Source of the DNA: an uncultured Gemmatimonadaceae bacterium
Lineage (GTDB): Bacteria > Gemmatimonadota > Gemmatimonadetes > Gemmatimonadales > GWC2-71-9
Length of the DNA stretch: 64,000 bases
Assembly (NCBI GenBank): GCA_964519805.1
Contig: CAZFKN010000002.1
Coordinates: forward strand, 3,814 to 67,813
Direction of reading: 5' to 3'
A model generated the notes under the pieces. It was given only the letters and a program-made list of their open reading frames with translations. It was not told the origin of the DNA and ran no database searches. Shown in pieces: positions 24,828 to 46,784 of the stretch. The position numbers and the translations under genes were made by a program. Numbering within the stretch: position 1 is the first letter of the stretch; each line of letters opens with the position of its first letter.

Positions 24828-25256
24828 ATGCCTTACGATCCCCGACTCGTCGCTCCCATGCGCGATGAGATGGTGCGGATGGGCGCGAAGGAGCTGAAGA
24901 CGGTGACCGAGGTCGACGAGGCACTCGGCGACCAGAGGGGGACCATGCTGGTCTTCGTCAACTCGGTGTGTGGATGCGCGGCGGGCAACGCTCGACCGGC
25001 GCTGGCTTACGCGCTGAAGCACAATATCCTGCCACACCAGGTGGTCACGGTCTTCGCGGGCCAGGACGTCGACGCCACCGCGCGGGCGCGCCAGTACTTC
25101 AACGATTACCAGCCAAGCTCCCCCTCGATGGCGCTTCTTCGAGACGGGGAGGTCGTGCACTTCATCCACCGGCACCAGATCGAGGGCCAGTCACCCCAGA
25201 CGGTGGCGGCCAACCTCACAGCCGCCTTCGACAAGTTCTGCGGCGCGACGGTGTGA
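24828..25256 (+). CDS. bacilliredoxin (BrxA/BrxB, DUF1094/YphP-YqiW family)
   Basis: LVFVNSVCGCAAGNARP with the CGC redox motif and a family-typical length of 142 aa. GAGGAG Shine-Dalgarno upstream. Confidence 0.85.
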   Translation: MPYDPRLVAPMRDEMVRMGAKELKTVTEVDEALGDQRGTMLVFVNSVCGCAAGNARPALAYALKHNILPHQVVTVFAGQDVDATARARQYFNDYQPSSPSMALLRDGEVVHFIHRHQIEGQSPQTVAANLTAAFDKFCGATV

Positions 25257-25257
25257 C

Positions 25258-25542
25258 GTGAGCGGACGCATCTTTCACGAGGGCCATCAGGCGCTGCACG
25301 GTATCACGGTCGTGCTCGCGACCACCGGCCCGGTCACGTACGTCGGCCGCTTCGACACGCAGGACGCGGCCGGCGTGCACCTGCTGGATGTGGCTATCCA
25401 TGACGCCGGCGAAGCCGCCATGTCGAGGGAGGACTTCCTCCGTCGGACGCTCAAGTTCGGCGTGCGCGCGGAGCGGAAGCATTTGCTCGTGCCGTCCGGT
25501 GAGGTGGCCAGCGTGCTGCCTCTGAACACCGTAAGCGGCTGA
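25258..25542 (+). CDS. hypothetical protein (94 aa), possibly Sm-fold-like
   Basis: The GTG start is 1 nt after the bacilliredoxin stop. GC3-rich frame. The segment ITVVLATTGPVTYVGRFDTQDAAGVHLLDV loosely resembles an Sm1 motif. No confident family assignment. Confidence 0.45.
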   Translation: MSGRIFHEGHQALHGITVVLATTGPVTYVGRFDTQDAAGVHLLDVAIHDAGEAAMSREDFLRRTLKFGVRAERKHLLVPSGEVASVLPLNTVSG

Positions 25543-25566
25543 ACGACCTGCGGTGAGGTCCGCGGC

Positions 25567-27447
25567 ATGACGGACTTCGACGTCGTCGTCATCGGGGGCG
25601 GCCACGCGGGCACGGAAGCCGCCGCACTGGCCGCGCGTGCCGGCGCCCGCACTCTGCTTCTCACCCAGAATCTCGAGACGATCGGTCAGATGTCGTGCAA
25701 TCCCGCCATCGGCGGGATTGCAAAGGGCACGATCGTGCGCGAGGTCGACGCGCTTGGTGGCATCATGGGGCGGGCCACCGATCTCGCGCGCATCCAGTTC
25801 CGGATGCTCAATCGGTCGAAGGGGCCTGCCGTCTGGTCGCCGCGGGCGCAGTGTGACCGCGGTCTGTATCGACGCGCAGTGCGCACGCTGCTCGAACGTC
25901 AGCCGCGGCTCGCTTTTGCGCAGGGCACGGTCACCGAATTCGTGATGCAGGGCCGGGCGGTCGTCGGCGTGGTTACGGGGGATGGCCGGCGATTCCATGC
26001 GCGGACCGTTGTGCTCACGGCGGGAACGTTTCTCCGCGGGCAGATCCATCTTGGGCTCGACCATCGGGTGTCCGCCGGCCGGGCGGGAGATCCGGCATCG
26101 TTGGAGGTCGCGCAAGCACTTGTAAATATTGGACTTACTGTATCGCGCTTCAAGACAGGGACCCCCCCGCGAATCGACGGCCGGACGGCGGATCTTGCCA
26201 GCCTCTATCGCCAGGACGGAGACCCGAACCCGTACTGGTTTTCCTCGTTGGAGCGGGCGCCCCACCCTCGTCAGCTCCCATGCTACCTGACCTGGACCGA
26301 CGGACGCCTACGGGAACTGGTCGCGCGGCATCTGGGAGAGTCTGCCCTGTACGGTGGAGTGATCAGCGGCCGGGGACCGAGATACTGTCCCTCGATTGAG
26401 GACAAGATCGTGAAGTTCCCCGATGCCGACCGGCATCAGGTGTTCCTCGAGCCGGAGGGGCTCGACACGTGCGAGATGTACGTGAACGGGCTGTCTACGT
26501 CGCTGCCGAGCGATCTACAGCTGGCGATGCTGCGGACAGTGCGCGGCCTCGAGCGGGTGGAGATGACGCGTCCAGGCTATGCGATCGAATACGACTACGT
26601 CCCGCCGACGCAGCTCCGCCCGACGCTGGAGGTACGGGAAGCGGACGGGCTGTTTCTGGCGGGGCAGATCAACGGTACCACCGGCTATGAGGAAGCCGCC
26701 GGGCAGGGAGCGATCGCGGGCCTCAACGCGGCGGCACGGGTGCTGGGGAGGGACCCGGTGACACTTCGGCGCGACGAGGCGTTCATCGGGATCCTAGTGG
26801 ACGACCTGGTAACGCGAGGGGTCGATGAACCGTATCGTCTGTTTACCTCGCGCGCCGAATACCGGTTGCTGTTGCGACAGGACAATGCGTTGCGTCGGCT
26901 GCTTCCGGTATCGGAGCGCCTCGGACTTCTGTCCCCGGACGAGCTGGCGGCGGCGCGGAAACAGATCGACGGCGAGGACCGGATGAGCGCGGCTGCGGCG
27001 GTAACCACGATCCGTCCGGCGGACGCGAACCCCATACTCGCGACGGTGGGCGAAACGATCGCGGCGCCGGAGCGAATCTCCCCGCTGGTCCGGCGACCCG
27101 GGGTGTCGCTCGCGGGGCTTCTGCGCGCGGCGGGGGTCGCGGATGTCTCCGATGAGGCGTGCGTGTCTGCCGAGGTGGAGATCAAGTATGCCGGCTATCT
27201 GGCCCGCGAGCGGGAGGCCGCGGCTCGGCTCGCGGAGCTCGACGGCTTTCCCTTGCCCGCTGGGCTTCACTACGACGAGCTTGGCTCGATTTCGTACGAA
27301 GCGAGGGAAAAGCTGTCGGCGACCCGTCCCGCGACGGTCGGCCAGGCTGGTCGGATTCCGGGCGTATCCCCGAGCGACCTACAGAACCTGGTGATCGCGG
27401 TCTTGCGGTTCCGCGAGAGCCCTGTTTCACGTGAAACAGCGAGCTGA
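25567..27447 (+). CDS. mnmG: tRNA uridine 5-carboxymethylaminomethyl modification enzyme MnmG (GidA)
   Basis: [17 protein letters not shown] motif, [31 protein letters not shown]. 626 aa. Confidence 0.95.
27423..27438. other. parS centromere-like ParB-binding site (perfect)
   Basis: TGTTTCACGTGAAACA is a perfect palindrome that matches the consensus TGTTNCACGTGAAACA. It is embedded in the last codons of mnmG, 226 bp upstream of parA. Confidence 0.85.
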
Positions 27448-27511
27448 GTAGACCCATCCCCGCCAGGCGTGGGTTGGCGTGGCTCGTCGCCAGTGGCGCC
27501 TCGAATGCCCC

Positions 27512-27527
27512 GGTTTCACGTGACACA
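27512..27527. other. parS-like site (2 mismatches)
   Basis: GGTTTCACGTGACACA in the mnmG-parA spacer. It differs from the consensus at positions 1 and 13. Confidence 0.5.
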
Positions 27528-27663
27528 GTGCCCTCCGTCATTGCCCATCCAGGTGTCATTCCTATATTTCGTCGCACACGCCCACGGATAGGGAACGCCG
27601 CTCCCGGACGCCATCCTGGTGTCAAGCTGTCAACTTACTACGCTACAATAGCTTACTGAACTA

Positions 27664-28479
27664 ATGGCGAGAATTATCTCGATCGCGAATCAGAAGGGTG
27701 GCGTCGGCAAGACGACCACTGCCGTGAATCTCGCCGCGTCGCTCGCCATCGCGGAGCGGCGTACCCTCCTCGTGGATGCTGATCCGCAGGGAAATGCGAC
27801 AAGCGGCGTCGGCATTCTCAAGGGCGCGGTCCGCTTCTCGCTCTATGACGCCATGGTGGATGGTCGTCGTGTCGGCGACGCCATTCTGCATCACGAGGCG
27901 CTGCCGCATCTTGATGTGCTGCCCGCGACGCAGGATCTCGTCGGCGCCGAGCTCGAGTTGGTCAATCGTGAAGGGCGGGAGCGCGCGTTGCGCGCGGCGC
28001 TCGAGCCGATCGAGAACTCATACGATGTCGTCATCGTGGACTGCCCGCCCTCGCTGGGGCTCATCACCCTCAACGTCCTCACCGCCTCGGATGGCCTGCT
28101 GATTCCCATTCAGTGCGAGTATTACGCGCTGGAGGGCATCTCCCAGCTGCTGAACACCGTCCGACTCGTCCAACAGAACTTCAATCCTCCACTCGCGATC
28201 GACGGCGTGCTGCTCACGATGTACGACTCACGCCTGAATCTCTGCCGCCAGGTCGCAGAGGACGCCAAGGAATATTTCGGCGCGAAGGTCTTCCGCACTC
28301 CCGTGCCCAGGAACGTCCGGCTCGCCGAGGCGCCGAGCTTCGGCAAGCCGATCCTGCTGTACGACGTGCAGTCGGTCGGGGCGAAGAGCTACCTCGCGGT
28401 TGCGCAGGAGCTGCTGCACCGCCTCGAGAGTCCGCCGGTACCGGAGCCGGAGTCGCCACTCCCCGAGGTGATCCGATGA
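27664..28479 (+). CDS. parA: chromosome partitioning ATPase ParA/Soj
   Basis: Deviant Walker A KGGVGKTTT and conserved ParA sequence throughout. Confidence 0.95.
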   Translation: MARIISIANQKGGVGKTTTAVNLAASLAIAERRTLLVDADPQGNATSGVGILKGAVRFSLYDAMVDGRRVGDAILHHEALPHLDVLPATQDLVGAELELVNREGRERALRAALEPIENSYDVVIVDCPPSLGLITLNVLTASDGLLIPIQCEYYALEGISQLLNTVRLVQQNFNPPLAIDGVLLTMYDSRLNLCRQVAEDAKEYFGAKVFRTPVPRNVRLAEAPSFGKPILLYDVQSVGAKSYLAVAQELLHRLESPPVPEPESPLPEVIR

Positions 28480-29339
28480 CCGAAACGAAGCGGCTGGGCC
28501 GAGGACTCGAAGCCCTCCTGGGCCCGATCACGCGCGAGCAGGCGGAGGCTTCAGGTGCGCTCCGGGAGCTCGCGGTCACTGTTGTGCACCCGAATCCCTT
28601 CCAGCCGCGGACGCGCTTGGACGAGACGGCATTGGCCGAGCTGGCGGCCTCGATCGAAACGTCCGGCCTGCTCCAGCCGGTGGTAGTGCGGCCGCGGAAC
28701 GGCGGCTATGAGCTGATCGCGGGCGAGCGCCGCTGGCGGGCGGTACAACGGCTCGGTTGGCCGACGATCCCGGCCGTGATCAAGGACGTGGACGATCAGA
28801 CGCTGCTCACGCTCGCGCTGGTCGAGAACCTGCAGCGGGATGACCTTTCGCCGATCGACGAAGCGCAGGGGTATCGACGGTTGATGGAGGAGTTCGCTCT
28901 GTCGCAGGTGGAAGTGGCCCGTGCCGTCGGACGCCACCGCACCACGGTTGCCAATCTGCTCCGGTTGCTGAAGCTGCCGGAGGAGGTGTTGAGTCTGGTT
29001 CACGAGGGCAAGCTCTCGGAGGGCCACGCCCGTGCCCTGCTGGCGCTCGAGCACCCGGAGGCTGTCGCCCGGCTCGCCAAGCGCGCAGTGGCCGAGGGGT
29101 GGTCGGTCCGGGAGGTGGAATCTCGCGTACGCGGGGATGGTCGCGGGCGGCGACGCGAGCCGCGTCCGCTCACGCCGGAGGGCCGTCGGGTGGAAGAGGC
29201 GCTCCGAAGGCGACTGGGAACCGACGTCCGGATTCAGGCGGGCCGCAGGGGGCGGGGCGTGCTCGCGATCAGCTACTACTCCAACGACGACCTCGCCCGC
29301 GTGCTCGAGCTCATCCTGGGCGAACCGTTCACGGGATGA
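28476..29339 (+). CDS. parB: chromosome partitioning protein ParB/Spo0J
   Basis: RLGRGLEALL N-terminus, GERRWRA CTP-binding/arginine-patch motif and HTH region. ATG overlaps the parA stop (ATGA). Confidence 0.95.
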   Translation: MTETKRLGRGLEALLGPITREQAEASGALRELAVTVVHPNPFQPRTRLDETALAELAASIETSGLLQPVVVRPRNGGYELIAGERRWRAVQRLGWPTIPAVIKDVDDQTLLTLALVENLQRDDLSPIDEAQGYRRLMEEFALSQVEVARAVGRHRTTVANLLRLLKLPEEVLSLVHEGKLSEGHARALLALEHPEAVARLAKRAVAEGWSVREVESRVRGDGRGRRREPRPLTPEGRRVEEALRRRLGTDVRIQAGRRGRGVLAISYYSNDDLARVLELILGEPFTG

Positions 29340-30130
29340 GCCCGGGCGCCCGGGCCTACACCATCGTGGTGCAGCGGGACGGCGCGCTCGAGGCGCGCAC
29401 GTTCCGCATTCCGGTGTGGCTGGTCCGGGCCTCAGCCGTCGCAGCTGCCGTTGTCGGGTTGTGCCTGGTGGGAGCGATCGGGTTCTACGGGCCTATCGCG
29501 AGGGCCGCCGCCCGGGTGCCCGGTCTCCAGCGCGACGTCGCGCGGCTTCAGGCGGAAAACTCAAAGATCGTCGCCCTGAGCGCCGCGGTGGACAGTCTGG
29601 AGCAGCGCTACGCGCAGGTCCGCAAGATGATCGGCGCCGACATCGTGCCCGACCCGCTGCGCCACGCCGCAACGCTGCCTGTCGCGCCCGCGATCCGGGC
29701 ATACCCCCGATCAGCCAACCCGCGATTCGCGACCGGCGGGCCGCCGCACTACTGGCCGCTGGACGACACCGGGTTCCTCACGCGCGGACAGGTCGGGGAC
29801 AGCGCCGGTGACCAGGCTCACCCCGGGATCGACATTGCCGTGCCTACGGGCAGCGTCGTCCGAGCGGCCGGGAGCGGGACCGTGGCTCAGACCGGCCAGG
29901 ATCCCGAGTACGGCTGGTTCGTCCTGCTGCAGCACTCCGAAGGCTACCAATCCATGTACGGCCACCTATCCCGTCGGCTGGTTGCCCCGGGCGACTCGGT
30001 GGCCGCCGGCCAGGTGATCGGATTGAGCGGCAACACCGGCCGATCCTCGGCACCCCATCTCCACTTTGAAATCCGCCGGCAGGGGACCACGCTCGATCCC
30101 CTGACCATGGTCAAGGAGGGCAGACAATGA
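29336..30130 (+). CDS. membrane-anchored M23 (LytM-type) metallopeptidase
   Basis: Short N-terminal tail, one TM helix (VWLVRASAVAAAVVGLCLVGAIGFYG), a coiled-coil-like segment, then an M23 domain with intact HPGID (HxxxD) and PHLHFE (HxH). ATG overlaps the parB stop (ATGA). Confidence 0.9.
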   Translation: MSPGARAYTIVVQRDGALEARTFRIPVWLVRASAVAAAVVGLCLVGAIGFYGPIARAAARVPGLQRDVARLQAENSKIVALSAAVDSLEQRYAQVRKMIGADIVPDPLRHAATLPVAPAIRAYPRSANPRFATGGPPHYWPLDDTGFLTRGQVGDSAGDQAHPGIDIAVPTGSVVRAAGSGTVAQTGQDPEYGWFVLLQHSEGYQSMYGHLSRRLVAPGDSVAAGQVIGLSGNTGRSSAPHLHFEIRRQGTTLDPLTMVKEGRQ

Positions 30131-30531
30131 ACCTCTTCGCCAGCCCCGCCCGCGACGAGCACGGCAACGAGCTGCGCCGCCGGCGCAGCGACCAGATGCC
30201 CTTTTCGATCGTGGCGAAGGACATGACGATCGTGGGTGACCTCGAGACCGAGGGACTCGTCCGGATCGAGGGTCGAGTCCGGGGCACCGTGCGAGCGGGG
30301 AGTCAGGTCCTCATCGGCCAGGGCGCGCAGCTGGAGGGCGACCTCCACACCAAGGAAGCCGTGGTGGGCGGCGAAGTGATCGGCTCCATCCACGCGACCG
30401 AGCGGGTGGAGCTTCAGCCGACCGCGGCCGTCACGGGCAACATCATCACGCCCCGGATCGCGGTCATGGAGGGCGGGAAAGTGAGCGGTGAGGTTCGGAT
30501 TCAGGATCATCCTGTAGAGCTTGAAAAATAA
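30127..30531 (+). CDS. bactofilin-family cytoskeletal protein
   Basis: Beta-helical bactofilin repeat pattern (IVGDLETEGLVRIEGRVRGTVRAGSQVLIGQGAQLEGDLHTKEAVVGGEVIGSIHA...). ATG overlaps the M23 stop (ATGA). Confidence 0.9.
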   Translation: MNLFASPARDEHGNELRRRRSDQMPFSIVAKDMTIVGDLETEGLVRIEGRVRGTVRAGSQVLIGQGAQLEGDLHTKEAVVGGEVIGSIHATERVELQPTAAVTGNIITPRIAVMEGGKVSGEVRIQDHPVELEK

Positions 30532-30540
30532 GGATTTGTC

Positions 30541-31572
30541 GTGATTTTGGCGCGTTTGTGTCGTCTTGCTGCCGTTAGTTCGTTCGTGGCTTGCGGACCG
30601 GCGGCGGGCACCAAGCCCGGCCTGCGAGTCGGTCTCATCACACCGGGCTCCATCGCTGACGCCGCTTGGAACTCGGGGGCCTACCGGGGCCTGCTCCAGA
30701 TCCGCGATTCGCTCGAGGTCGCCATTTCCCAGGTGGAGGCTCGCACGCCGGCCGAGCAGGAGGATGCGCTCCGCACGTACGCTGCGCAGGGGTACGATCT
30801 GGTGTTCGCACACGGGTTCGAGTTCCAGGGCGCTGCGGAGCGAGTGTCGCGACAGTATCCCCAAACTGTCTTCATCGTGACGTCCGGCGAACGCGCTGCC
30901 GGCAACGTCGCCCCACTCGTCTTCCGCCTCGAAGAGGCCAGCTATCTCTGCGGCATGGTGGCTGGAGGAATGACTCGGTCCAACGTGCTCGGGTTCGTCG
31001 GCGGGATCGAGCTGCCGCCCATCAAGGCAGCGTACGAGGGCTGGGTTCGGGGCGCCCATGCCGTGAACTCGAAGGTGGAGGCGCGCCAGATCTACCTCAA
31101 CAGCTTCGATGATGCCGCAGCCGGCCGGGAAGCCGCCCTGGCGCTCATCCGGATCGGCGCGGACATGTTCCACCACAACGCCGATGCTGCCGCGCTCGGC
31201 CTGTTTCAGGCCGTCAAGGAGACGCCGGGCGTCTATGCCTTCGGGGCGAACTCCGACCAAAGCGAGCTGGCGCCCGATCACGTGTTGGGCTCCGCGGTCA
31301 TTGACCTGCCTCGGGCGTTCCTGCTCGTCGCCCGCGAGGTTCGCGCCGGGACGTTCAGGCCGCGGATCGAGTCGTTCGGTCTCGCGAGTGGGGTGATCCG
31401 GTATGAGCCCAACCCACGGCTCGAGCGGCTCGTCCCCCCGGCTCTGAGGCTCAGGGTTCGGGCCGCCGCCGACTCGATCGCGGCCGGAACGCTGCAGCCC
31501 GTTCCCTCCCCCGGCTTTGCGCTGCAACCGGCCGCTCCTCAAAGCGCGCGAGCCGAGCCGACGTCGCAGTGA
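30541..31572 (+). CDS. BMP-family (PnrA/Med-like) ABC transporter substrate-binding lipoprotein
   Basis: Lipobox SSFVAC. BMP-family pattern (VGLITPGSIADAAWNSGAYRGL ... YDLVFAHGFEF ... GFVGGIELPPI). Confidence 0.85.
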   Translation: MILARLCRLAAVSSFVACGPAAGTKPGLRVGLITPGSIADAAWNSGAYRGLLQIRDSLEVAISQVEARTPAEQEDALRTYAAQGYDLVFAHGFEFQGAAERVSRQYPQTVFIVTSGERAAGNVAPLVFRLEEASYLCGMVAGGMTRSNVLGFVGGIELPPIKAAYEGWVRGAHAVNSKVEARQIYLNSFDDAAAGREAALALIRIGADMFHHNADAAALGLFQAVKETPGVYAFGANSDQSELAPDHVLGSAVIDLPRAFLLVAREVRAGTFRPRIESFGLASGVIRYEPNPRLERLVPPALRLRVRAAADSIAAGTLQPVPSPGFALQPAAPQSARAEPTSQ

Positions 31573-32347
31573 CGGAAGTCGCCTTGACCGAGGTGGTGGG
31601 GTTTCTCGACGCCTTTCTGCGGGTGAGCGAGGTACCGGACGATCCGAATGCTCTCAACGGGCTCCAGGTCGCGAACGGCGGGCGAGTAGCGAAGGTCGTG
31701 GCGGCCGTCGACGCTTCCCTCGAGACCATCGAGAGTGCTGTTCCCCGCGGGACGAACGCCGGGCCCCGGCTGCTCCTCGTGCATCACGGCCTCTTCTGGG
31801 ACGGCAACGTCCCGCTCACCGGCCGCCGATTCCGGCGGGTGAAGGCCCTTCTCGATGGCGATGTGGCTCTCTATTCGGCACACATCCCCCTGGACTTGCA
31901 TCCGGAGGTAGGCAACAACGTCGAGCTGGCTCGCCGCCTCGGGTTGCTGGTGGAGGGATGGTTCGGCAGCTACCGCGGCGTCCCGATCGGCGTGTACGGG
32001 GCGCCACCCCCCGCCGTGACGGATCGAGACCGGCTGGTCGCGCTGCTCACCTCGGATCTCGGAGCGGTGGCGCGGCTCATCCCGGGCGGACCCAAGAAAC
32101 CGCAGCGGATCGGCATCGTAACGGGCGCCGCCGGCTCGATGATCGCGGCGGCCCGCGACGCGGGCATCGACACCTTCATCACGGGCGAGGGAGCGCACCA
32201 CACGTACTTCGACGCGATGGAGTGGGGCGTGAACGTGATCTATGCCGGCCACTATGCCACGGAGCAGGTCGGAGTGCAGGCGCTCGCCAGCCGTCTCCAA
32301 GCCGAGTTTGGCCTTCCCTGGGAGTTCCACCGGCACCCCACCGGTCT

Positions 32348-32351
<4 letters not shown>
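31569..32351 (+). CDS. Nif3-like dinuclear-metal-centre protein (YbgI/YqfO family)
   Basis: LNGLQV, LLLVHHGLFW and YSAHIPLD motifs. The GTG start overlaps the upstream stop (GTGA). Confidence 0.85.
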
Positions 32352-33816
<1,465 letters not shown>

Positions 33817-42160: not shown

Positions 42161-42203
42161 CGCGATAAGATAATTGCGGTGGCTGGGGTATATTCCCCGG
42201 GCT

Positions 42204-43352
42204 ATGGCCGCCGCATCGGTTTCGGCGCCGCCCGCGCGGCAATTCCGGGACGAGTTCCCGATCTTCCGCCATGCGATCTATCTGAACAGCTGCTCGCTCG
42301 GTCCGCTGTCCCGGCGCTCACGCATTCGGGTTGCGGAGTATCTCGACCTGTGGGAGCGGCGCGGTGCGGCGGCTTGGTACGATGTCTGGTGGGCGGCGCT
42401 GGGCGAGTTGCGCGAGCGCTACGGCCGGGTCGTCGGGGCCGACGCCGCGAATATCGCCCTGCACCCGAACATCTCCGGCGCGCTCTCGGCCGTCGCCGAA
42501 GCGTTGGACTACCGAACCCGACCCAAGGTCGTGGTAACCGGGCTCGACTTCCCGACCATTGCCTATCAGTGGCTGGCCAAGGCGGGTGAGGGCGTCGAGG
42601 TCCAGCTGGTGGAGAGCGCGGACGGCGTCCAGGTGCCGTTGGAGCAGATCGAGCGCGCGGTGGACAGCCGCACCGCGCTGGTGGCAACCAGCCACGTGTT
42701 CTTCACCTCCGGCGCGATACAGGACGTCGCCGCACTCGCCGGCATCGCCCATCGGAAGGGTGCCCTGCTGCTGGTGGACGGGTACCAGGCCACGGGCCAG
42801 CTTCCGGTGGACGTGCGACGGCTGGACGTCGACTTCTACTGCGCCGGCGGGCTCAAGTGGCTGCTTGGCGGATCCGGAATCGCGTTTCTGTACGTGCGAC
42901 CAGAACTCGTGACCGGGCTCGCGCCCCGGGCCACCGGTTGGTTCGCCCATCGGGAGCAGTTCCTATTCGACCCGCGGAGACTCGTTCCTCACGACGATGC
43001 CCGTCGATTCGAGGCGGGAACCCCGGCGATGGCGTCGGTCTATGCGCAGTTAGGCGGCCTCGACGTACTCGAGCAGGTCGGAATCGAGGCGATTCGGCGC
43101 GCCACGATGGCACTCGCGGAGGACCTGATCGAGCGGGCTCGGGAAGCCGGGCTCGCGTGCAAGGTCGCGGCGACAAAGGAGGCTCGGTCGGGGATCGTGA
43201 TGCTGTCGAGTGCGGATCCCCCCGGGGACGTGCGCCGGCTCGGCGACGCCGGCATCATCGTCGATGCCCGACCGGGCCACATTCGCGTCTCACCCTATTT
43301 CTACAATGTGCCGGATGATCATCTCGCGCTGGTGGAGCTTCTGAAGTCGTGA
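42204..43352 (+). CDS. class-V-fold PLP-dependent enzyme (no desulfurase cysteine)
   Basis: PLP lysine motif AGGLKWLLG. The C-terminal RPGHIRVSPYFYN lacks the catalytic Cys seen in the SufS of this window (RAGHHCAQP). I prefer ATG 42204; the longest ORF starts at TTG 42174. Confidence 0.8.
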   Translation: MAAASVSAPPARQFRDEFPIFRHAIYLNSCSLGPLSRRSRIRVAEYLDLWERRGAAAWYDVWWAALGELRERYGRVVGADAANIALHPNISGALSAVAEALDYRTRPKVVVTGLDFPTIAYQWLAKAGEGVEVQLVESADGVQVPLEQIERAVDSRTALVATSHVFFTSGAIQDVAALAGIAHRKGALLLVDGYQATGQLPVDVRRLDVDFYCAGGLKWLLGGSGIAFLYVRPELVTGLAPRATGWFAHREQFLFDPRRLVPHDDARRFEAGTPAMASVYAQLGGLDVLEQVGIEAIRRATMALAEDLIERAREAGLACKVAATKEARSGIVMLSSADPPGDVRRLGDAGIIVDARPGHIRVSPYFYNVPDDHLALVELLKS

Positions 43353-44113
43353 CCGAAACGTCGCCCCGCGGCCCGCATCGTCCCGGCGAAGCGAAGCCCC
43401 TCACTGAAGACGAGGTTCTCCTCGAGAGCCCGTCGCCCCGGGAAGTCGAGCTGCACAAGGCATCCGACTCCTGGCGGGCGCTCCGCATCCTGGGCGAATT
43501 CGTTTGGGGGTTCGAGAACCTCGCCGACGTGAGCGGCGGCGTCTCGATCTTCGGCTCGGCGCGCACTCGGCCGGAGGATCCCGACTATCAGGCCGCCACG
43601 GAAACGGCGCGACTCCTCTCGAAGGCGGGCATCCCTGTCATCACCGGCGGCGGTCCCGGCATCATGGAGGCGGCGAACCGCGGCGCGTACGAAGCAGGCG
43701 GCCTCTCGATCGGTTGCAATATCGAGCTCCCGTTCGAGCAGGGGACGAATGCGTACGTCACGCGGAGCCTGATGTTCAAGTTCTTCTTCGTCCGGAAGAT
43801 GATGTTCGTGAAGTACGCCAGCGCGTTCATCGTGTTCCCCGGCGGCTATGGGACGCTGGACGAGTTGTTCGAGGCCCTGACACTGATCCAGACGGGCAAG
43901 GTGAAGCATTTCCCGGTCATTCTCTTTGGTCGGCGCTATTGGAGCGGCATGGTGGACTGGCTTCGGGAGACGGTGGCGGCCGAGCGCAAGGTCAACGTGG
44001 AGGATCTCGAGCTCTTCCGTGTGACGGATGACCCCGCCGAAGCCGTGCAGCTCGTTATCGCCGCGCGCAACGGGCAGCCGGCGAGGAAGAGGAAGGAGAA
44101 GCCCAGGTCATGA
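43349..44113 (+). CDS. LOG-family (TIGR00730) nucleotide phosphoribohydrolase
   Basis: [14 protein letters not shown] and [12 protein letters not shown] motifs. GTG overlaps the upstream stop (GTGA). Confidence 0.85.
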
Positions 44114-45279
44114 CACGCCCGTCGGCGGCATACCTGCGTGGTCAGCGGATCGATCCCCAAGCGACGACCGGGCGGGAAACGGCCGCCGACCTGATCGACA
44201 ACGCGTTTCTCGCCTACAATGCCGGGCGCCTTCGTGAGGGGTGCGCGCTCTTCTCCCAGCGGATGCTCGCGTCGGACGTTACCGTCGGCATGAGCCTGAC
44301 CGGCGCGATGACGCCGGCCGGCCTCGGGATGAGCTGCCTCATCCCGCTGATGGAAGTCGGGTTCGTCGACTGGGTGATCTCAACCGGTGCGAATCTCTAT
44401 CACGACGCGCACTTCGGGCTCGGCCTGGCCATGCATCGCGGGACACCGCACGCGGATGACGTGGAGCTGCGCGACAAGGGCGTGGTCCGGATCTACGACA
44501 TCTTCTTCGACTACTCGGTGCTCTTGTCCACGGACGCATTCGTCCGCGAGGTCTCGGCCCGGGCAGAGTTCCAGCGACCCATGAGCAGCGCAGAGTACCA
44601 TTGGCTCCTGGGGAAGTACCTGCTGGAGCGCGAGCGGGCCCTCGGCCTGACCCGCCGCTCGGTACTGGCCGCAGCCTACCAGCTCGACGTACCGGTCTAC
44701 ACCAGCTCGCCGGGGGACAGCTCGATCGGGATGAACGTGGCCGAGCAGGCGCTGGCGGGGAGCAAACTCCGGTTCGACGTCAGCGCCGACGTGAATGAAA
44801 CTGCGGCGATCGTTCTGGAGGCGAAGCGGTCGGCGGGGAAGAGCGCCTGTCTCATCATGGGCGGCGGCAGTCCCAAGAACTTCATGCTCCAAACCGAACC
44901 CCAGATCCAGGAGGTGCTCGGCATCGACGAGCGCGGGCACGACTACTTCCTCCAGATGACCGATGCGCGTCCGGACACCGGCGGACTCTCCGGCGCTACG
45001 CCGGCGGAGGCGGTGAGTTGGGGCAAGATCGACCCGGACCAGCTGCCCGGAACGGTGGTGGTCTACTGTGACAACTCGATTGCCCTACCGCTACTCACGG
45101 CCTACGCACTGGCGCGGCACGAGCCCCGCCCGCTCAAGCGTCTGTACGGCAAGCGCGAGGCGATGCTGCGCCGGCTGATCGACGAGTATCACGCGGCACT
45201 CGCGTCCCGGGACCGTCGAGCCGAGGCGTCGCTCGCTGAGACACAACCGGCCGGAGGGGCCAAAGCGGTCGGTCGGTGA
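44110..45279 (+). CDS. deoxyhypusine synthase-like protein
   Basis: DHS family pattern, including GGGSPKNF (position of the catalytic Lys) and [12 protein letters not shown] overlaps the upstream stop (ATGA). Confidence 0.85.
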
Positions 45280-46784
45280 CGGGAAAGACCGGTGCGGCCC
45301 CGCCGGGGCCGAGCCTCACCACCGCCTACCGGTGGTACGCGCTCGGCCTCCTCGCCCTCATCAACCTCCTCAACTACCTCGACCGCAACGTCATCTTCGC
45401 GCTGTTCGAGCCGATCAAGCGCGACCTGGGGCTGACCGATACCCAGCTCGGTTGGCTCGGCTCGGCGTACATCCTGGTCTTCTCGGTGGCCGCGCTGCCC
45501 TTCGGCGTGATCAGCGATCTCCGCTCCCGGCGGGCGGTGATTGCCGCCGGCGTGACCGTCTGGAGCGCGTTCACCGCGCTCGGGGCGGCCGTCCGGAACT
45601 TCGGGCACCTGTTCATCTGCCGGGCGGCCGTCGGCATCGGAGAGGCAGCGTTCGGTCCGGCGGCGGCGTCGCTAGTGGCAGACTACTTCCCCGGCAAGGG
45701 TCGCGCGGCGGCCATGGGAATCCTGTCGTCGGGGATCGCGCTTGGCGGGGTGCTTGGTATCGGATTGGGCGGCGTGCTCGAGAAGCACTACGGTTGGCGG
45801 GTCGCCTTTCTCGTCGTCGGGATCCCGGGCATGCTCTGCGCCGTAGCCGCGGCGCGGCTCGTGGACCCGACCCGCCGGCCGTCGACGGTCACGCTCCGCG
45901 AGTTCTTCGCCGACCGGGACGGCGCCGTTGCCATGCTCCGCCGGGACTTCCCGTGCACAATGATCGGTGTGGCCGTCGGTTTCGGCACCGCCATCGCGCT
46001 CGGTAGGGTCTACGACTCGAAGCTCGACGTTGCGGTGCTCGGAGCGGCGGTGGGACTGGGGCTCGCCGGCGACATTCTGCGGTGGGCTCGGCTCATCCGT
46101 AGCGGCAAGATCGGCACCACGCCGCTCGGCGGCGAGTTGGGGGGCGCCATCGACGACATCGTCGGCGCGGTGAAGCGGGTGCTCGCCACGCCCACCCTGG
46201 TGTACGTCTTCGTGGCGGGCGCCATGATTTCATTCGGCATGAACGGGATCGTAGGCTGGGGACCGACCTTCATTGCCCGAGAGCTGGGTTTGACCTCGTC
46301 CCAGGCCGCGACGCTGCTCGGCAAGTGGGGCCTGCTCGCCGGGACGGCCGGCACGTTGTTCGGTGGGGGCCTCGCGGACTGGCTGCGGCGCTACACCGAC
46401 CAGGCCCGGGTCATCACCGTGGCACTCGGCCTCCTGATCGGCGCGCCGGCCGCGATCTGGCTGCTCACGGTCCGGGACCAGACCATCTTCATTCCCGTGT
46501 TCTTCGGCGCGTTCTTCTTCCTCTCGTGGTACAACGGTCCGCTGACCGCGGTGATCTTCGACGTCGTGCCGGCGCGGGTGGGCGCTACGGTCGCAGGTGC
46601 CTACCTGCTGTTCATCCATCTGGCCGGTGACGCCATCGCATTCCCGCTGGTAGGGGCGCTCTCGGATCGCTTCGGGATCGACCGCGCGGTGTTCGTGCTC
46701 CCCTCGATGGCCCTGCTCGGCGGACTCGTGGTGCTCGGCGCGATCCGGACGGTCGGCGCGGACATGAGGCGGGTGACGCAGTAG
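45276..46784 (+). CDS. MFS transporter (Spinster-like)
   Basis: About 12 TM segments. N-terminal LNYLDRNVI motif, typical of the Spinster-like MFS subgroup. GTG overlaps the upstream stop (GTGA). Confidence 0.85.

Follow-up and report, generated by a model that had tools for sequence, protein, structure and literature searches.

Conserved placement of an M23 peptidase-bactofilin gene pair directly behind parAB in Gemmatimonadota and Krumholzibacteriota

Here, we report a four-gene unit from an uncultured Gemmatimonadaceae bacterium in which the chromosome partition genes parA and parB are followed directly by genes for a predicted bitopic M23 peptidase and for a bactofilin. The names of the closest homologues place the organism in Gemmatimonadales. 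The unit lies in a 64,000-nucleotide (nt) stretch of contig CAZFKN010000002.1 (GenBank assembly GCA_964519805.1, positions 3,814 to 67,813 of the forward strand), referred to below as the window, whose own numbering is used throughout. The same gene order is kept across Gemmatimonadota and in loci attributed to Krumholzibacteriota, two phyla in which we lean, with some reserve, towards reading it as a selected co-expression unit: a canonical ParABS system combined with a local peptidoglycan hydrolysis module of the LmdC/BacA type, with the output of the M23 peptidase slaved to the translation of parB. All components and both pairwise associations (parAB with bactofilin, and bactofilin with M23) were already known; the conservation across two phyla and an asymmetry in Shine-Dalgarno (SD) sequences are new.

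A genome collection was scanned with an alignment of M23 homologues, which gave 586 relatives; the best 80 loci were examined (Gemmatimonadota species representatives, M23 identity 49-71%), and the counts given below refer to these. Every locus with enough flanking sequence had the order gidA-parA-parB-M23-bactofilin-(Bmp)-NIF3. The parB gene was immediately upstream of the M23 gene in 80/80 loci, with bactofilin immediately downstream in 79/80. Spacing was also constant within the unit, at -4 nt between parB and M23 in 76/80 loci, -4 nt between parA and parB in 69/77, and -4 to +3 nt between M23 and bactofilin in 78/79. The outer junctions were loose (gidA to parA, median of 217 nt; bactofilin to the next gene, median of 93 nt, range of -20 to 270 nt). 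Across these loci, it is the conservation of the junctions, not overlap itself, that exceeds chance expectation, and no other part of the unit is as stable as the linkage of parB to M23.

More distant M23 homologues were sought with a profile search, which returned full-length matches down to about 32% identity, and their contigs were looked up. The order parA-parB-M23-bactofilin was also found in four lineages whose M23 proteins are 32-37% identical. A metagenome-assembled genome (MAG) of Longimicrobiales retained it, and three loci attributed to Krumholzibacteriota read trmE-gidA-gidB-(beta-helix protein)-parA-parB-M23-bactofilin, after which come genes of unrelated kinds (such as HSP20, MoxR or UvrD). 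Two of these three come from named MAGs; the third, CP070727.1 (4.1 Mb), was attributed by its M23 protein, which shares 48% identity with the one from a named Krumholzibacteriota MAG. The scan of the genome collection returned Gemmatimonadota alone, and two further homologue searches, meant to extend the survey past these two phyla, reached Krumholzibacteriota and Longimicrobiales only. An earlier note on this DNA had proposed that segregation genes are wired to a wall-remodelling module and had made conservation in related genomes its first check; the adjacency proved to be conserved, both in the 80 loci and in Longimicrobiales and Krumholzibacteriota.

Translation signals are distributed unevenly along the unit. 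In the window, parB and the bactofilin gene each have an SD sequence placed inside the 3' end of the gene before (Table 1), and none was found before the M23 start. The same pattern recurs across loci: counting SD sequences of 5 nt or more, parB has one in 86% of 77 loci, bactofilin in 85% of 79, M23 in 12%, and parA in 7% of 69. As the M23 gene mostly lacks an SD sequence and its start almost universally overlaps parB at -4, the M23 protein is probably translated by termination-reinitiation after parB. Ribosomes terminating on parB would restart at the overlapping M23 ATG and make small amounts of peptidase in proportion to ParB, and the polymer-forming bactofilin would be translated independently, and more strongly, from its own strong SD sequence.

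The partition genes form a canonical chromosomal ParABS system, with a complete ParB, a deviant-Walker ParA and a perfect parS at 27423. The ParB translation has an N-terminal LGRGLEALL ParA-interaction peptide, a GERRWRA cytidine triphosphate (CTP)-binding motif, a helix-turn-helix and a C-terminal dimerisation domain, and scores 193.7 bits against NCBIfam TIGR00180 (cut-off, 58.45). Searches with Pfam and NCBIfam found no unusual extra domains in ParA or ParB.

For the M23 protein, the earlier note had described a short cytoplasmic tail, a transmembrane helix, a coiled coil and intact HxxxD and HxH motifs, and all of these were seen, the motifs in the sequence and the topology by prediction (Table 1). 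The N-terminal tail is net positive, and an AlphaFold2 model (built with 19 homologues) adds a predicted disordered linker at residues 100-133. The HxxxD motif (H162-D166), the HxH motif (H241-H243) and H210 are invariant, even in homologues of about 30% identity from both phyla. T9, D15, G16 and W28 of the hairpin region are invariant among Gemmatimonadales homologues, and a hairpin-like N-terminal pattern is conserved in all M23 homologues aligned. The model was compared with the folds of the PDB, where matches were at the level of the M23 domain only; the best solved structure was Helicobacter pylori Csd1 (5j1l_C, E value of 4.6e-11), which partners the bactofilin CcmA, followed by ShyA and other active endopeptidases. 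Neither this M23 protein nor the bactofilin has a dedicated model in NCBIfam. LmdC combines a catalytic M23 domain with a coiled coil, a membrane-spanning helix and a short cytoplasmic part; the latter carries a conserved beta-hairpin, the element that binds LmdC to bactofilin in Rhodospirillum rubrum (PMC10945521). By this published architecture, we liken the M23 protein to LmdC, as a predicted bitopic endopeptidase with intact catalytic residues. Even if its link with parAB is one of co-expression only, annotation gains, in that these M23 proteins would be labelled LmdC-like rather than MepM or NlpD.

We consider it very improbable that the M23 protein is instead a non-catalytic LytM-type regulator that, like EnvC, NlpD or DipM, activates amidases in cell separation. 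Degenerate LytM factors lose their catalytic residues (PMC10945521), whereas the family here shows no variation at the Zn-binding and catalytic H162, D166, H210, H241 and H243; since these residues are intact, an EnvC/NlpD-type identity was rejected. Sub-threshold, domain-level NCBIfam matches to EnvC, NlpD, DipM and ActS would fit such a regulator, as would the coiled coil that EnvC also has, yet it is active endopeptidases (ShyA, MepM and Csd1) that lead both the sequence and the fold matches, and a cytoplasmic hairpin with a transmembrane helix is not the secreted or lipoprotein form.

The bactofilin is recognised over nearly the whole length of its profile (Table 1). Its N-terminus, MNLFA, is the local version of a conserved peptide, M-x-x-F-[ST], and the form M-[GAS]-[IML]-F-[STN] is common to 75 bactofilin orthologues, which confirms that the overlapping ATG is the true bactofilin start. 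This peptide resembles, in sequence, the membrane-targeting sequence of bactofilins, whose global consensus is MFSKKKK (PMC12448750); it has one extra residue and no lysines, and a basic RRRR cluster follows 15-20 residues in.

Bactofilin-M23 pairs are known modules, as the earlier note had held: 226 species have adjacent bactofilin and M23 genes, and LmdC binds BacA via its cytoplasmic beta-hairpin tail (Pöhl et al. 2024, PMC10945521). A search for "Gemmatimon" in the supplementary files of that paper, which include the 226-species list, gave no entry. The unit is like BacA-LmdC (Hyphomonas neptunium and R. rubrum) and CcmA-Csd1 (H. pylori) in that the bactofilin gene adjoins a gene for a bitopic M23 protein. 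Unlike BacA-LmdC, the pair sits inside a parAB operon directly after parB, and translation of M23 appears to be coupled to that of parB; at 264 amino acids (aa) the M23 protein is smaller, the bactofilin has M-x-x-F-[ST] without the MFSKKKK lysines, and the host phyla are Gemmatimonadota and Krumholzibacteriota.

The other association, of parAB with bactofilin, is also published. In Myxococcus xanthus, parA-parB-bacM-MXAN_7474 are reported as co-transcribed, with BacM and MXAN_7474 dispensable for segregation (PMC3899335). Although its gene directly follows parAB, BacM has a role in cell shape alone, and the organisation of ParABS falls to BacNOP and PadC, encoded at another locus (PMC5703909). 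In Bdellovibrio bacteriovorus, parA3-parB-bd3904 (bactofilin) are co-transcribed by reverse transcription-PCR (PMC7186360; PMC10547168). The unit shares with these operons a bactofilin gene near the origin and downstream of chromosomal parAB, with co-transcription that is reported there and is inferred here. Unlike it, they have no M23 gene between parB and bactofilin, and the fourth gene of M. xanthus encodes a putative lipoprotein. The earlier note was right that bactofilins scaffold ParABS in Myxococcus, through BacNOP-PadC (Lin et al. 2017, PMC5703909), a system in which the tie is functional; BacNOP-PadC differs in its separate locus, in needing the ParB-like adaptor PadC, and in containing no peptidoglycan hydrolase. 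By Pfam, a PadC-like adaptor was not found in the cluster, which has a single ParB-domain protein and the neighbours Bmp and NIF3.

The full-text literature searched (bactofilin with M23 and parB, bactofilin with Gemmatimonas, and bactofilin with spo0J) gave no description of a parAB-M23-bactofilin unit. The earlier note's statement that no such case is described therefore falls for parAB with bactofilin, given the published Myxococcus and Bdellovibrio operons, and stands for the inserted M23 gene, which appears undescribed in searchable papers. The four-gene combination thus joins two known associations in an arrangement that itself appears to be undescribed. Most bactofilin-M23 pairs in the published table lie mid-chromosome, and two M23-bactofilin pairs, both on the minus strand, are at 2,565,508-2,566,934 in Halothermothrix orenii H168 and at 2,745,555-2,746,904 in Tepidanaerobacter acetatoxydans Re1 (PMC10945521, supplementary file 3). 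These two may represent an independent occurrence of parB-M23-bactofilin, an unconfirmed lead. In Firmicutes, soj-spo0J is usually near the chromosome end, and we take both pairs to lie about 12-13 kb from theirs, on assumed and unconfirmed genome sizes.

Under the reading of a selected co-expression unit, selection would have kept an origin-proximal partition operon with a complete bactofilin/LmdC-type wall-remodelling module built in. By analogy with LmdC/BacA, the bactofilin would polymerise on the inner face of the membrane via its N-terminal M-x-x-F-[ST] peptide and capture the cytoplasmic beta-hairpin of the M23 protein, and DD-endopeptidase activity would thereby be confined to one zone of the envelope (a pole, the division plane or a polar spherical appendage). 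Selection most likely acts on co-expression, in fixed stoichiometry with the segregation machinery; direct contact of ParA or ParB with bactofilin is possible without being required. Segregation and wall remodelling may plausibly be linked in function. A hydrolase gene wedged between parB and bactofilin, and kept there in two phyla, offers a testable lead on how segregation and wall remodelling might be coordinated, in lineages that are abundant in soils and barely studied.

Several observations weigh against this reading. The genes are near each other in the Krumholzibacteriota and Longimicrobiales loci without overlapping (gaps of 1-270 nt, that from parB to M23 included), so translational coupling is not universal. 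Bactofilin is reduced in one locus to a 45-residue remnant that starts MALFST (L025:6770-6910), is replaced in another by a protein with several membrane passes and CxxC Zn-ribbon motifs at its C-terminus (L081:1508-2329), and is not adjacent in three more, where NIF3 follows M23 directly (L088-L090). As parB-M23 is kept where the adjacent bactofilin is lost, the M23 protein may not depend strictly on this bactofilin. The hairpin-like N-terminal pattern of M23 remains in all five of these loci; a loss of the hairpin alongside that of bactofilin was not seen among the homologues P0217, P0176 and P0250, which keep the pattern and give no signal of co-variation. The lysines of the canonical membrane-targeting sequence are absent from the bactofilin N-terminus, and the structural model of the M23 protein is of moderate confidence (predicted local distance difference test [pLDDT] score of 73). 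For BacM, the best-studied precedent, co-transcription need not mean shared function (PMC5703909; PMC3899335). The functionally unrelated NIF3 is syntenic throughout Gemmatimonadota, though not in Krumholzibacteriota, and with overlaps being common, part of the conservation could be inertia of a compact, origin-proximal region.

The frequency of such overlaps belongs on the same side. The four genes and their three ATGA junctions, each with the downstream ATG over the upstream TGA, are exactly where the earlier note had placed them (28476-28479 for parA/parB, 29336-29339 for parB/M23 and 30127-30130 for M23/bactofilin; open reading frame [ORF] list and raw sequence). Its view of them as a special translational hard-wiring did not survive comparison with the rest of the window, where 13/34 same-strand junctions overlap by -4 or -1 (gene call based on G+C at third codon positions, GC3). 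A second chain of four same-strand genes with three 4-nt overlaps is found at 42174-46784 (42174-43352, 43349-44113, 44110-45279 and 45276-46784), which makes such chains ordinary in this genome. On that base rate and the second triple run, the overlaps were rejected as evidence per se. They are operon-style packing typical of a 68% G+C genome and, alone, weak evidence that gives no sign of unusual hard-wiring; since 13/34 same-strand junctions overlap anyway, conservation is the stronger evidence.

These base rates would suit a historical accident, in which an lmdC-bacA pair landed after parB in a common ancestor and was never separated, owing to a compact, highly expressed region, with the two modules independent and M23-bactofilin serving shape only. 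Such an origin is unlikely in our judgement. The core stayed intact through repeated rearrangement of its flanks: some loci have Bmp and others do not, Krumholzibacteriota carry gidB and a beta-helix gene as upstream insertions, and what follows downstream is wholly different in the two phyla. The -4 overlap of M23 and its conserved lack of an SD sequence would be a specific expression design beyond proximity. Consistent with an accident are the example of BacM, co-transcribed with parAB yet acting in cell shape only, the synteny of gidA, NIF3 and trmE and the frequency of overlaps genome-wide, and the position of most M23-bactofilin pairs elsewhere, far from chromosome ends and apparently not beside parAB (by the coordinates for Thermus, Thermoanaerobacter and Fibrobacter).

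The persistence of the core across two phyla despite differing flanks would also be expected from direct coupling, in which the bactofilin polymer is a landmark for ParB-parS and/or ParA and also recruits M23, so that the origin is docked at the site of wall remodelling, for example at a pole, a coming division plane or the polar appendage. We hold this to be possible and clearly less probable than selection for co-expression. It fits with parB-M23 being the most invariant junction (-4 in 76/80), persisting where bactofilin is lost, with parS no farther than about 250 bp to 3 kb from the operon, and with the organisation of ParABS by bactofilins in M. xanthus (PMC5703909). Those organisers, BacNOP, are not encoded in the parAB operon and need PadC, for which no similar gene is present here; the operon-encoded BacM is dispensable for segregation (PMC3899335); and neither ParA nor ParB has an unusual extra domain.

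The biology of the phylum adds to the case for direct coupling. Cultured Gemmatimonadota have polar spherical appendages (formerly "buds") of unexplained function. Their binary fission depends on FtsZ and is often placed off-centre, at 1/3 or 1/4 positions; Min, MipZ, PomZ, MapZ and SsgAB are all absent, and orphan ParA-like proteins have been proposed as candidates (PMC11271474). The absence of these systems, together with off-centre division and polar spheres, suggests that a positioning system is missing. That in Gemmatimonadota and Krumholzibacteriota, both taken to lack Min, MipZ, PomZ and similar systems, the bactofilin behind parB is this missing landmark, docking ParB-parS (or ParA) and recruiting the hydrolase so that the position of the origin dictates where the wall opens, is a doubtful proposal, and one on which we would put slightly less weight than on direct coupling as such. 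If true, it could explain the 1/3 or 1/4 division planes and the polar spherical appendages. More generally, and as speculation, the bactofilin/LmdC module behind parB is an additional candidate for the appendage and division phenotypes of Gemmatimonadota. A gene for a membrane protein less than 2 kb from parS, with translation coupled to parB, could even help to tether the origin region to that membrane site through co-translational insertion.

Table 1. Features of the parAB-M23-bactofilin region, in window coordinates
Feature	Position	Strand	Details
parS, perfect 16-bp consensus	27423..27438		TGTTTCACGTGAAACA; inside 3' end of mnmG/gidA; 0 mismatches; 0.03 expected by chance in window
Second parS-like site	27512..27527		2 mismatches; 14 nt before promoter-like -35 hexamer
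Candidate sigma-70-like promoter	27541..27568	+	TTGCCC, 16-nt spacer, TATATT; 9/12 positions; consensus match only
parA, Soj-type partition ATPase, 271 aa	27664..28479	+	Pfam AAA_31, 6e-64; KGGVGKTT deviant Walker A; no SD sequence
SD sequence for parB	28465..28472	+	GAGGTGAT; inside 3' end of parA
parB, 287 aa	28476..29339	+	Pfam ParB_N, 4e-34; HTH_ParB, 2.5e-36; ParB_C, 2e-11
LmdC/Csd1-like bitopic M23 peptidase, 264 aa	29336..30130	+	Peptidase_M23 PF01551, 1.6e-33, residues 161-255; start overlaps parB stop
Predicted cytoplasmic beta-hairpin, M23 residues 7-26	29354..29413	+	AlphaFold2 strands 7-13 and 20-26; pLDDT 71-85
Predicted transmembrane helix, M23 residues ~29-51	29420..29488	+	19-residue hydropathy maximum of 2.26 at 32-50; AlphaFold2 helix 27-59
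Predicted periplasmic coiled-coil helix, M23 residues 61-98	29516..29629	+	AlphaFold2 helix 61-98
M23 catalytic domain, residues 147-258	29774..30109	+	H162, D166, H210, H241, H243
SD sequence for bactofilin	30113..30119	+	AAGGAGG; inside 3' end of M23 gene
Bactofilin, 134 aa	30127..30531	+	PF04519/DUF583, 1e-24; 87 bits against cut-off of 27.9; residues 27-123 = profile 1-97/98
Bmp/PnrA-like lipoprotein	30541-31572	+	Pfam; start 9 nt after bactofilin stop
NIF3/DUF34	31569-32351	+	Pfam; overlaps Bmp by 4 nt

Directly upstream of parA lies mnmG/gidA (25567-27447), and the 216-nt spacer between the two holds the candidate promoter, the sole promoter-like site in 25000-33000. No terminator-like hairpin was found in that interval. 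From the overlaps, the lack of a predicted terminator and the single upstream promoter-like site, we infer co-transcription of the four genes. A parS site (at most 2 mismatches) occurs upstream of parA in 65/67 related loci, mostly within 100-300 nt, which suggests autoregulation of the operon by ParB. The whole unit would lie inside the ParB-bound centromere region, with parS sites beside its promoter; with these sites near the promoter and the operon in a ParB-loaded region, ParB-dependent regulation is plausible. An A+T-rich leader, tacgctacaatagcttactgaacta, unusual in a 68% G+C genome, precedes parA (27640-27666). In Gemmatimonadales, rsmG/gidB is absent between gidA and parA (27448-27663 in the window). 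The three Krumholzibacteriota loci (L092, L093 and L095) have gidB and a gene for a PKD/beta-helix protein of about 425 aa inserted just before parA, and in L095 this gene overlaps the called parA start.

Downstream, the packing on the same strand runs on past bactofilin. The earlier note's single operon agrees with the tight packing of the four genes, and its limit to four may not hold: a mere 9 nt separate the bactofilin stop from Bmp, which in turn shares 4 nt with NIF3, so the transcription unit may exceed four genes. Among loci, the gene after bactofilin is Bmp in 43/76 and NIF3 in 33/76. Where Bmp is present, it lies between bactofilin and NIF3, and ATP-binding cassette (ABC)-transporter genes are found downstream of it in the window.

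Further upstream, a 94-aa ORF without a Pfam match (25258-25542) lies 24 nt ahead of gidA and only 1 nt behind a Disulph_isomer (PF06491) gene; it possibly encodes a small conserved protein.

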